A DNA stretch of 64,000 bases from a virus (IMGVR_UViG_3300020048_006428:1-64000), one strand, 5' to 3'; positions 16,221 through 24,113 are shown, counted from the stretch's first letter. A program made the numbers and translations. Notes: generated by a model not told the origin, from the sequence alone.

Positions 16221-16310
16221 TACCCAAGGTGAGATTCGAACTCACAACGTTTTCCGCTAGGGTATTGGGTTCTTAAGCCAATGCGTTTCAACCAGTTTCG
16301 CCACTTAGGT
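16221..16310 (-). tRNA. tRNA-Leu (AAG by canonical register; TAA if loop is shifted)
   Basis: acctaag/cttgggt acceptor, GCG/CGC D stem, ttggc-TTAAGAA-cccaa anticodon arm with C31xC39, long variable arm, GTTCGAATC. Confidence 0.8.
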
Positions 16311-16642
16311 ATAAAATATTATCAATTAAATAATTTCTGTATTCTTGTTTAAAATCTATAATATTATATTCATTCCAATCACTATAATGCAAATAATCAT
16401 CAGATTTTCTTGTATAAAATTGGAATTCATTATCAATTCTTATTAATGCAATATTTTGATTATCTGATAAATAACGTGAAAAATGTTCAACAGAACGGCC
16501 TTGAACAAATGAACCTTTTGAAAATGTAATATTTTGTTTTAAACTTAAAGACAAAAAATTTTTTAAAGCTGTATTATCACCACAAAAAAAGCTGTATTTT
16601 TATTGTTTATAATTTCAATTATATTCATATTAAATTTTTTTG

Positions 16643-16713
16643 ATCCCCCAAGCAGATTTGAACTGCTATCTATATCTTACCAAGATATCATTCTACCATT
16701 GAAATATAAGGGC
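16643..16713 (-). tRNA. tRNA-Thr(GGT)
   Basis: atatc-TTGGTAA-gatat anticodon arm, agcag-TTCAAAT-ctgct T arm; G1xA72. Confidence 0.85.
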
Positions 16714-16720
16714 ATAAATT

Positions 16721-16795
16721 TGGAACGCACAGTGGGGCATGATCCCACGTTTCCGGTTTTGCAGACCGGTGCCTAAACCACTCGACCATATGCGC
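16721..16795 (-). tRNA. tRNA-Cys(GCA), CCA encoded
   Basis: ccggt-CTGCAAA-accgg; U73; atypical T-loop ATCATGC. Confidence 0.85.
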
Positions 16796-16804
16796 GTATT
16801 GTTG

Positions 16805-16878
16805 TTGGATTAATTGGATTTGAACCAATGACATCTTCGGTATCAGCGAAGTACTCTAACCAACTGAGCTATAATCCA
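16805..16878 (-). tRNA. tRNA-Ile(GAT)
   Basis: TAGCTCAGTTGGTTAGAG D arm, cttcg-CTGATAC-cgaag. Confidence 0.9.
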
Positions 16879-16889
16879 TTATAATTAAG

Positions 16890-16963
16890 AGGTTCAGGTC
16901 GGATTTGAACCGACGATCTCTTGAATGTAAATCAAGTACCTTAGACCACTTGGCGACTGAACC
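16890..16963 (-). tRNA. tRNA-Val(TAC)
   Basis: ggttcag/ctgaacc acceptor, cttga-TTTACAT-tcaag, GTTCAAATC. Confidence 0.85.
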
Positions 16964-16974
16964 TTATATTTTTG

Positions 16975-17047
16975 TAGAACAGATAGGATTTGAACCTACA
17001 ACCTTCCGATTCGTATTCGGAGACTTTTCCAATTAAGTTACTGTTCC
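16975..17047 (-). tRNA. tRNA-Arg(ACG)
   Basis: tccga-ATACGAA-tcgga, GTTCAAATC. Confidence 0.85.
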
Positions 17048-17052
17048 ATTTT

Positions 17053-17128
17053 TGGATCCCACAGACAGCAACGATCTGTCAACCCCAGTTTACAAGACTG
17101 GTATTTTGCCAATTTAAACTATGTGGGC
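17053..17128 (-). tRNA. tRNA-Thr(TGT), CCA encoded
   Basis: ccagt-CTTGTAA-actgg; G1xA72; atypical T-loop ATCGTTG. Confidence 0.85.
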
Positions 17129-17160
17129 ATATATGGCTACTAAAAAAGTAGCCTTTTTAA

Positions 17161-17433
17161 TTATTTATTTTGACTTTCAATGTATGAATATGGCGATCCA
17201 TCAACATAAACTATGTTCTTGAAACCATTTGCTTCTGTTATTATTGATTCTTGTTCTGTTACACCAGCTCTATATTTTTCACCATAATTTCCTTCTATCT
17301 TACCTGTTGCTGGATTAACATCGCCCCAAACTTCACCTTTATACTTTTCATTTGGTATGATTGGTTCTACACAATAAACTTTACCTGTTTTTAGATTCGT
17401 CACAAAATGACGACCATAACCACCTTCTTTCAT
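17161..17433 (-). CDS. Hypothetical protein inside tRNA array
   Basis: 90 aa ORF with WGDVNPATGK motif. Confidence 0.65.
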   Translation of the reverse strand: MKEGGYGRHFVTNLKTGKVYCVEPIIPNEKYKGEVWGDVNPATGKIEGNYGEKYRAGVTEQESIITEANGFKNIVYVDGSPYSYIESQNK

Positions 17434-17455
17434 AATAATAAATTTAATTTTTTAG

Positions 17456-17544
17456 TAGAGTAGACAAGACTCGAACTTGCAGCGTTGTAATAAATAACAC
17501 TTAATCCCAAATTAAGGCGGCTTCCATTTACCGGTTACTACTCT
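17456..17544 (-). tRNA. tRNA-Pro(TGG) with enlarged variable region
   Basis: agagtag/ctactct acceptor, cttaa-TTTGGGA-ttaag, GTTCGAGTC, about 19-nt variable region. Confidence 0.8.
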
Positions 17545-17552
17545 ATATTTTG

Positions 17553-17635
17553 TTGGTGCAGTGGGATTTGAACCCACATTTATCAACTTACCAATTACAG
17601 TTCTCCATCTTATCAGGATGGGCTGGTATGCACCA
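17553..17635 (-). tRNA. Non-canonical D-armless tRNA-Ile(GAT)-like RNA
   Basis: tggtgca/tgcacca acceptor, 7-nt linker instead of D arm, ccatc-CTGATAA-gatgg, 27-nt variable region, gtggg-TTCAAAT-cccac. Confidence 0.7.
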
Positions 17636-17646
17636 TTATAAACCTA

Positions 17647-18465
17647 CTACTCTATATTTTTGTTTTTAATCCATTTTCTAACTGCATTATCACTTACTCC
17701 ATATTTTTTACCAGTTGCAACATAACCATACTCTTCAATTTCTTTCAATAATTCTTCTACAGAAGGTCGAATTACTTTTCTAAAGTCTATTCTATTACAA
17801 ATTATACACTTTTTAGAATTTTTATTTATTTCACTTCCACAAACACAAAAATTAGATATTTTTTTCTTATTTTTTCCTACGTGTGTGTCTAATCCAGCAT
17901 TGCAATTAGGACAAACAATTCTTAAATTTTCTAATCTGTTGTCATCATAAATACCATTTATGTGATCTATTATCAATGAAATCTTCATTCCGTTCCATTC
18001 TTCTCCTTGTCCACATAGTTTACACTTTCTTTCTAATATACCATCATCATATAATCTTTTTTTAAGATGTGTTCTACTATATGTAGAATTTTGTACTAAA
18101 ATTTCATCAAGTGATTTCTTTTCCTTTAGTAAATTTCTTTTTGCTACTTCTTTTGCTGATTCAAAATGTTCTATTGATATATTATAAATATCAATATATT
18201 TTTTTAAAATTTTATAATTACCACCAGCTGCCCTTAATCCCATTTTAACTAAAGATTCTTTATATGATGATGATTCTGATATAATTTTACTTAAAAATTC
18301 CTTTTCATATATTCCCCTATTTTTAACATAGGATATATTTAACATATTTGCCTTTTTCCTTATTGCGTAAATTTTTCTATCAAGAAAATCAGAACAATAT
18401 TTAGCTCCTTTGTTATAATTTTCTATTAAGAAATCAATTTCTTTTTCTGTCCATTTTTTACTCAT
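17647..18465 (-). CDS. HNH homing endonuclease inserted in tRNA array
   Basis: CKLC...IDHING...NRLENLRIVCPNCN; C-terminal HTH (KYGVSDNAVRKW). Confidence 0.85.
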   Translation of the reverse strand: MSKKWTEKEIDFLIENYNKGAKYCSDFLDRKIYAIRKKANMLNISYVKNRGIYEKEFLSKIISESSSYKESLVKMGLRAAGGNYKILKKYIDIYNISIEHFESAKEVAKRNLLKEKKSLDEILVQNSTYSRTHLKKRLYDDGILERKCKLCGQGEEWNGMKISLIIDHINGIYDDNRLENLRIVCPNCNAGLDTHVGKNKKKISNFCVCGSEINKNSKKCIICNRIDFRKVIRPSVEELLKEIEEYGYVATGKKYGVSDNAVRKWIKNKNIE

Positions 18466-18552
18466 AAAATAAATCTAATTTTTAATTATATATATAAAAT
18501 ATATCAATTTCCATTTAGACTTTTATATAAATTTCAACTTAGACTTTATTTG

Positions 18553-18625
18553 TTATCACGGAAGGACTTGAACCTTCAAAATCCATATTCAAAGTATGGT
18601 GACTTTACCATTCGTCTACGTGACA
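18553..18625 (-). tRNA. tRNA-Gln(TTG)
   Basis: tgtcacg/cgtgata acceptor, ccata-CTTTGAA-tatgg. Confidence 0.9.
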
Positions 18626-18638
18626 ATATTTGTTAAAA

Positions 18639-18670
18639 TAAAAAATCCCAAAATCTTTTTAGATATTGGG
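18639..18670 (-). terminator. Attenuator-type intrinsic terminator upstream of the tRNA array
   Basis: Minus strand CCCAAtATCT-aaaa-AGATtTTGGG then ATTTTTT, ending about 14 nt before tRNA-Gln. Confidence 0.65.
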
Positions 18671-18705
18671 TCTTACATATATTTAATAGTATTTATTTTA
18701 CTTCA

Positions 18706-18807
18706 TCATGAAGCTACTTTTAAATTAGCAAAACCCTGTCCATTCGGAGTCTGGCGACACACCGTTTGAATGATATTGAGAATTGTGTTTTTAATTGTAG
18801 TTTTCAT
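18706..18807 (-). CDS. Putative leader peptide of tRNA operon, MKTTIKNTILNIIQTVCRQTPNGQGFANLKVAS (not in ORF track)
   Basis: 33-codon ORF between promoter motifs and terminator; central codons match anticodons of the downstream tRNAs. Confidence 0.7.
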   Translation of the reverse strand: MKTTIKNTILNIIQTVCRQTPNGQGFANLKVAS

Positions 18808-18861
18808 AATAGTATATATTAAATATTTTAAGTCCCTTTTGGTTAATTTCAATTTATATTA

Positions 18862-18869
18862 CAAATATA
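18862..18869 (-). promoter_or_regulatory. Bacteroidota-type -7 box TATATTTG for the tRNA operon leader
   Basis: TAnnTTTG 55 nt upstream of the leader ATG; late motif also at 18813-18822. Confidence 0.55.
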
Positions 18870-18928: not shown

Positions 18929-19216
18929 TTAAAAAATTATTTCGATTTTATGTAAAAACATTATTCTATTTATAGTTATTCGTTTAAGTTCAAAATAAGG
19001 TATTGATAATTTACTTTCTTCAATAGTGATAAAATCTTCCCAGTGAGATACATCTAATATAGCTCTTTTTAAATTCTCTAAGTTTTCATAACTAATGTCA
19101 GTGCTAACAGCAGATAAACGCAATTCAGCATAATCTTCAAAATATTTTTCAATTTGTTCTATTGTAAAATCACTTGGATTATTTACAATGTTTTGTGTTA
19201 AGATTTTAATATTCAT
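18929..19216 (-). CDS. Hypothetical protein
   Basis: 95 aa ORF in minus-strand run. Confidence 0.5.
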   Translation of the reverse strand: MNIKILTQNIVNNPSDFTIEQIEKYFEDYAELRLSAVSTDISYENLENLKRAILDVSHWEDFITIEESKLSIPYFELKRITINRIMFLHKIEIIF

Positions 19217-23261: not shown

Positions 23262-24113
23262 ATGTCAAGATTAAAAAGAACAAACGTTCAAAGCATTACA
23301 ACTTATAGTAAATTAGTTGAATTATTAAGAGATTTCTTTAAAAACAAAGGATTTTTAGAAGTAGCAACTCAACCAAATTTAACAATTTTAGCAGCTTGTG
23401 AAAATCCACATTCTATAACTACTTATAATTATTGTGGACAAGTATGGCCGTTACCACAAACTGGTCAAATGATATTAGAAGAAGTCTTATTATTAAATCC
23501 TGAATTACCTGGTGTTTTTTGTATTTCTACTTCATATAGACAAGAAAAGGATCCAATTCCAGGAAGACACGAATTAATATTCCAAATGTTTGAATTTGAA
23601 TCAAAGGGAACAATGGAAGATATGATTAAAATGGAAGAAGAACTACTAAAATATTTGGGCTTTGATAATATGATTGAAGTAAACTATGATGATATTTGTG
23701 AAGAATATGGTGGGGTTTCTATTCTTGAAGATGAACATGAGTATAGAATGTGGAAAGAAAAGGGTAGTGTCATATCACTACAAAATTTCCCCTATCGCAC
23801 AAACCCATTTTGGAACATGAACTGCAAAGGAAATGATTTATTTTCTAAAGTTGATGTTATCCTATATGGACAAGAAACAATTGGATCTGCACAAAGAAGT
23901 ACAATTGTAGAAGAAATGAAGAATAATTTTTATACCATTGAAAATGGTAAATATTGCCAAAAATTATTTGATCTTTTCGGTAAAGAAAGAGTTGAAGATG
24001 AATTAGAACAATTTTTATCATTGGATTTTTTTCCTAGATATGGTGGTGGAATAGGATTGACAAGATTAGCACGAGCCTATGAACTATTACAAAAAGAATT
24101 ACAATTAAATTAA
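23262..24113 (+). CDS. Class IIb aminoacyl-tRNA synthetase-like protein, catalytic domain only
   Basis: Motif 1 RDFFKNKGFLEV, motif 2 SYRQE...RH...FQMFEFE, motif 3 GGGIGLTRL; no N-terminal OB anticodon domain. Confidence 0.85.
   Translation: MSRLKRTNVQSITTYSKLVELLRDFFKNKGFLEVATQPNLTILAACENPHSITTYNYCGQVWPLPQTGQMILEEVLLLNPELPGVFCISTSYRQEKDPIPGRHELIFQMFEFESKGTMEDMIKMEEELLKYLGFDNMIEVNYDDICEEYGGVSILEDEHEYRMWKEKGSVISLQNFPYRTNPFWNMNCKGNDLFSKVDVILYGQETIGSAQRSTIVEEMKNNFYTIENGKYCQKLFDLFGKERVEDELEQFLSLDFFPRYGGGIGLTRLARAYELLQKELQLN

Follow-up and report, generated by a model that had tools for sequence, protein, structure and literature searches.

The window analysed here is the first 64 kb of a 276-kb virus record with 25% GC, estimated at 47% complete, and the sequencing runs that hold the region are aquatic metagenomes. 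On its minus strand, a block of ten tRNA genes is preceded by a 33-codon leader ORF (18807-18706) that lies between promoter-type motifs and a predicted terminator. The leader was called as a gene on a public contig and is identical in the close relatives that we label L229 and L230. A Bacteroidota sigma-A -7 box (TAnnTTTG) was found at 18869-18862, with a predicted start near 18857, about 50 nt before the leader ATG, although no canonical -33 TTTG was seen. The consensus is that described for flavobacteria (PMC9723704), and the box occurs within 90 nt of 26 of the 49 cassettes that we collected, against about 0.1 expected per 90 nt. A second motif, AATATATA, at 18820-18813, is common before genes of this phage and is present within 30 nt of 23 of the 49 cassettes; it is a candidate phage (late) promoter, a function that is inferred. 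The intrinsic terminator comprises a stem at 18670-18647 and a U tract at 18645-18635, and its T-run ends 14 nt before the first gene, tRNA-Gln(TTG) (18625-18552).

The block continues with an HNH endonuclease gene (18465-17647; Pfam HNH E=2e-4, HNH_3 E=2.6e-5), which is absent from a relative found in an aquatic run that we call X4 (joint 17639-18630). It is followed by a rearranged tRNA-Ile(GAT) at 17635-17553, with no D arm between acceptor and anticodon stems and a D-loop-like segment in the variable position, and by tRNA-Pro(TGG) at 17544-17455, which has a long variable arm and shows a paired change in the anticodon stem in run X4 (17513 and 17503). Next come a 90-residue ORF without Pfam match (17433-17161), the tRNAs Thr(TGT), Arg(ACG), Val(TAC), Ile(GAT), Cys(GCA) and Thr(GGT) (17128-16642), an 88-residue ORF, also without Pfam match (16554-16288), and tRNA-Leu(AAG) (16310-16220), the last gene of the block, whose anticodon also occurs in relatives. 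ARAGORN detected nine of these tRNAs, and a tenth (Ile GAT) only at a relaxed threshold. Neither the TAnnTTTG box nor AATATATA occurs inside the block and no internal terminator was found, but an AT-rich promoter-like sequence before the HNH gene (18513-18485) could feed nine of the ten tRNAs.

Concerning the host, only 10 of 216 long ORFs of the phage have a Shine-Dalgarno-like motif, which fits a Bacteroidota host (PMC9723704). The tail-sheath segment is 80% and 78% identical to those of the 642-kb and 635-kb phages LR756502 and LR745206. Five genomes above 634 kb were reported as Mahaphages predicted to infect Bacteroidetes (PMC7162821), and we infer from their sizes that these two records belong to that set. 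No cultured close relative was found, the best cultured sheath match being 33% identical, and no phage bS21 or RNA polymerase beta subunit was found in the record, which is about 47% complete.

The sequence-only reading had proposed that twelve core codons of the leader (18780-18745) mirror the downstream tRNAs, and this was confirmed. The eight amino acids of the block are all present in this core. In comparison, 45 of 68,205 33-residue stretches of the phage's proteins hold all 8 block residues in a 12-residue window, and 0 of 399 ORF starts in the genome match as well. The count of 11 of 12 decodable codons, however, requires inosine at position 34 of tRNA-Leu(AAG) to read CTC, which is not shown, and without it the count is 10 of 12. 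Seven of the 12 core codons end in G/C against 1.2 expected from genome usage (p=6e-5), but this is not clean evidence for decoding, since four of those third bases pair in the untranslated fold and recoding to A/T lowered untranslated (default) termination from 0.75 to 0.31, or to 0.2-0.3. Moreover, pooled GC3 is 0.32 for block residues against 0.29 for others. Synonymous choice, on the contrary, follows the anticodons: here Ile is ATT/ATC and not the common ATA, Arg is CGC and not AGA, and Leu is CTC and not TTA (8 of 8 against 3.3 expected; 67 of 92 against 47.5 pooled).

To evaluate whether the leader could work as a switch, we masked the RNA up to 9 nt past each codon to mimic a ribosome and folded the remainder. 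The terminator had a probability of 0.17 or less with the ribosome on codons 1-20, about 0.8 at codon 21 and 0.96 from codon 22 on. The competing fold is an antiterminator hairpin from 18736 to 18668 of about 27 pairs, larger than the 8-pair interaction (18736-18729 with 18675-18668) first proposed, which is nevertheless in the sequence. Its 5' strand (18736-18720, codons for Gln-Gly-Phe-Ala-Asn-Leu) would be covered by a ribosome that has passed codon 21, and its 3' strand (18687-18668) takes the three C residues that open the terminator stem. The boundary moved between codons 19 and 22 for footprints of 15 to 6 nt, and 4 of 1000 dinucleotide shuffles competed as well. RNA without a ribosome, starting 50 or 8 nt before the ATG, terminated with a probability of 0.75-0.91 through a long fold of the leader on itself. 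A synonymous change in the antiterminator strand removed the switch in silico. The end of the sensor segment (codons 2-21, 18804-18745) is thus fixed by structure, and 16 of its 20 residues are carried by the tRNAs of the block, against 3 of 12 after the boundary. The terminator of this cassette is weak (-8.6 kcal/mol, with an interrupted U tract and a mismatch at the stem base), against -12 to -19 in most relatives. It was missed by a simple scan and may leak.

The genome contains a second block at 216000-217485 with Lys, Phe, Ser, His and Trp tRNAs, which constitutes an internal replicate. It is preceded by another 33-codon ORF (215823-215924) and a terminator, and 14 of the first 17 residues after Met belong to that set. 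The leader-by-block table (19, 5; 8, 18) gave p=8e-4 on whole ORFs and p=2e-6 up to the switch, and none of the 399 ORF starts matches either set as well. Of 231 terminators in the genome, only the two before tRNA blocks show, by inspection, promoter-type motifs, a short ORF and a clean switch.

Pattern, neighbour and record searches gave 46 distinct cassettes in 21 clusters after filtering, in which one long GC-rich ORF was dropped by hand and a few cassettes come from other phage groups. Classes include His/Lys/Phe/Trp, Arg/Ser, Tyr/Glu, Ile/Gly/Ala, Asn/Thr/Leu/Val/Ile, Pro/Asp/Gln and poly-Gln. With one leader per cluster, composition before the switch matched the own block (z 8.5, minimum 8.0; no permutation of 2000 reached it in 200 draws) while the segment after the switch did not (z 0.9), and leaders paired better with their own terminator arm (-13.6 against -9.9 kcal/mol, z -6.6). 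Under our score, four other leaders (mostly Gln-rich) outscore the leader of the window on its block, although this leader scores best on its own block of all 46. As some loci had been found with leader-derived patterns, further blocks were taken by tRNA position only from LR745206 and another genome, G001, and these also matched (8 cassettes, one seen before; z 5.0, p=6.5e-5). Related cassettes share ancestry, so these values overstate independence. In addition, for most relatives the switch appears only when the RNA is folded before the terminator's 3' arm exists, since at equilibrium their terminators win. An exact 17-base core pattern found nothing in viral contigs and a pattern built on the antiterminator of this cassette gave only chance hits; no divergent orthologue of this exact leader was found, only near-identical copies and related classes. 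The HKFW leader pattern gave 3 hits in bacterial genomes, none of them a cassette, although a single pattern is a weak test.

The history of the cassette can be inferred from the relative L326, which carries separate Leu/Arg, Asn/Ile/Val/Cys/Thr and Gln/Pro/Asp cassettes. The antiterminator and terminator of the window align with those of the Leu/Arg and Asn/Thr/Leu classes, the terminator being homologous to that of the Leu/Arg cassette in L326. The simplest reading, without a tree, is that three blocks were merged and trimmed here and that one leader now samples all of them. Lys and Asn codons in the sensor segment have no tRNA in this block, and the Asn codons may be left over, since no tRNA-Asn was found in the incomplete record. 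The relative in run X4 keeps the leader with two changes, Leu CTC to CTA and Thr ACG to Pro CCG, both within the set of the block and with the switch unchanged.

Taken together, and on computational evidence alone, these results are best explained by a ribosome-dependent transcription attenuator that gates a phage tRNA operon, a reading that we hold with considerable confidence. In this sense, host RNA polymerase would start near 18857 and a ribosome would follow on the leader. If charged Leu, Ile, Gln, Thr, Val, Cys, Arg and Pro tRNAs are plentiful, the ribosome would pass codon 21 and cover the 5' antiterminator strand, the terminator would form and the tRNAs would not be made. If any one of them is short (cleaved, degraded, unmodified, uncharged or out-demanded), the ribosome would wait on codons up to about 21, the antiterminator would form and the block would be transcribed. 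The new tRNAs would then speed up the leader and close the switch, in a negative-feedback loop that works as an OR gate over 8 amino acids, while RNA that is not translated would terminate by default. The sequence-only reading had named host anticodon nucleases as the trigger, which is plausible (PMC10264068, PMC11555353) but not supported by data, since they are one of several causes of slow decoding and the switch cannot tell a cleaved tRNA from an uncharged or unmodified one.

Other explanations are less likely. The cassette may be a relic of an attenuator that worked in ancestors, in which the weak terminator leaks or a promoter at the HNH insertion bypasses it, so that the tRNAs are made more or less constitutively, and the Asn codons without a tRNA-Asn would agree with this. 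However, the leader fits this particular merged block, which relatives split over three cassettes, and it is unchanged or nearly so in close relatives. It is also unlikely, to a similar degree, that the switch responds to general ribosome slowing by antibiotics, stress or arrest by the peptide itself. Any stall before codon 21 opens the antiterminator in our scan, and regulatory uORFs that sense many antibiotics are known, as toiL of the E. coli topAI-yjhQ operon (PMC12121999), where stalling in a uORF also induces downstream genes. Nevertheless, leaders share no peptide motif across classes, and their residues and synonymous codons follow the tRNAs of each block, which a general sensor would not need. 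Even more doubtful is that the peptide or the short terminated RNA acts in trans, as some attenuator leader peptides do (peTrpL, PMC7298713), since this does not explain the block-specific codons or the antiterminator placed one ribosome footprint behind them. Chance is largely refuted, for although the core was picked after the fact and the 8 residues cover 37% of phage codons, the boundary is fixed independently by folding, the whole-ORF test holds, there is a second cassette and blocks picked without leader sequence also match.

The anatomy of the element matches the pheL-pheA model, in which stalling frees segment 2 to pair with segment 3 (PMC3082878), and leader-type attenuation has been reported as likely in a flavobacterium (PMC9723704). 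In amino acid biosynthesis attenuators such as pheL, trpL and hisL, and apparently the multivalent thrL and ilvGMEDA leaders, the control codons are runs of one to three amino acids and the regulated genes encode enzymes. Here, 8 amino acids are sampled with one to four codons each, the regulated genes are tRNAs, and the design is repeated per tRNA block in a phage. The nearest functional precedent is the tRNA-Phe-dependent attenuation of E. coli pheST through the pheM leader (PMC4082710), where leader translation senses charged tRNA but controls a synthetase for one amino acid in a bacterium. In T-box riboswitches tRNA status also controls a terminator/antiterminator choice, but these generally bind one uncharged tRNA directly and need no ORF, and no Rfam T-box match was found here at gathering score or at E up to 5. 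Phage tRNAs that replace host tRNAs lost during infection are already known, as T5 tRNA-Tyr against retron-Eco7 and tRNA-Lys against PrrC (PMC11555353; PMC10264068), and in PARIS (PMC11464382). In PMC11555353 the T5-like tRNA is supplied from a strong promoter and attenuation is not mentioned, while here supply appears conditional and self-limiting. To our knowledge, a leader-peptide attenuator of tRNA genes has not been described, at least in the literature searched, which left out most subscription papers.

It is about as likely as not that huge Bacteroidota phages run a modular tRNA homeostat, in which each tRNA block has its own multi-input leader, together covering most amino acids, and leaders are rewritten when blocks merge or split. 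The phage would thereby detect which tRNAs a host defence has destroyed and transcribe only the matching block, as an inducible and target-specific counter-defence. Why phages carry tRNA genes is a question open for over 50 years (PMC10264068). A leader that reads tRNA supply implies that these genes are a conditional reserve and not a constant codon-usage supplement, and in this reading the leader codons say which tRNAs the phage monitors, which makes the depletion hypothesis testable. It also extends attenuation to tRNA genes and to many-input logic, and offers a compact natural sensor of tRNA damage for the study of defence systems.

We also found a second leader-terminator cassette in the same genome, outside the window (G000:C1:215823-217485), which precedes the Lys/Phe/Ser/His/Trp tRNA block. 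Within the window, the 95-residue ORF located just upstream of the promoter (18929-19216, minus strand) is replaced or absent in near-identical relatives, while the promoter-leader region is unchanged. In addition, a 283-residue protein with a class II tRNA-synthetase core is encoded near the block (23262-24113, plus strand), the domain PF00152 being found on the matching gene of L308, one of the sequences used for comparison.

Some of the tRNA genes of these blocks deviate from the usual architecture. The tRNA-Ile(GAT) encoded at 17553-17635 (minus strand) has no D arm in the normal place and shows a D-loop-like segment after the anticodon arm. Four more copies were found, in the compared sequences L326, L338 and L349 and in LR756502, and the acceptor and anticodon stems are 100% paired with 5 two-sided changes. 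In the region corresponding to 17639-18630, a relative from sequencing run X4 joins the terminator to this rearranged Ile gene through 76 other nucleotides, probably a different or diverged tRNA. In four relatives Asn tRNAs precede the rearranged Ile gene, so it may be tRNA-Asn. Also, tRNAs with class I anticodons (Pro, Lys, Ile, Asn, Cys, Gln, Glu, Val) but long variable arms are common in these blocks, as observed at 17455-17544 (minus strand) in the window and in L033, L034, L059, L132 and L316.

The arrangement of leaders and blocks differs among the phages compared. Nested cassettes occur at L016:2225 and L060:7637, where a poly-Gln leader gates only the Gln tRNAs inside a larger Pro/Asp/Gln block. 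Other phages without the TAnnTTTG box (L137, L149, L163, L138 and L203) use one leader containing most amino acids before a block of up to 29 tRNAs. Furthermore, in three genomes (L376:23870, L377:9500 and L006) a tRNA-Met(CAT) gene stands upstream of the leader, outside the switch, before the Tyr/Glu block. It is possible that the initiator tRNA is left unattenuated.
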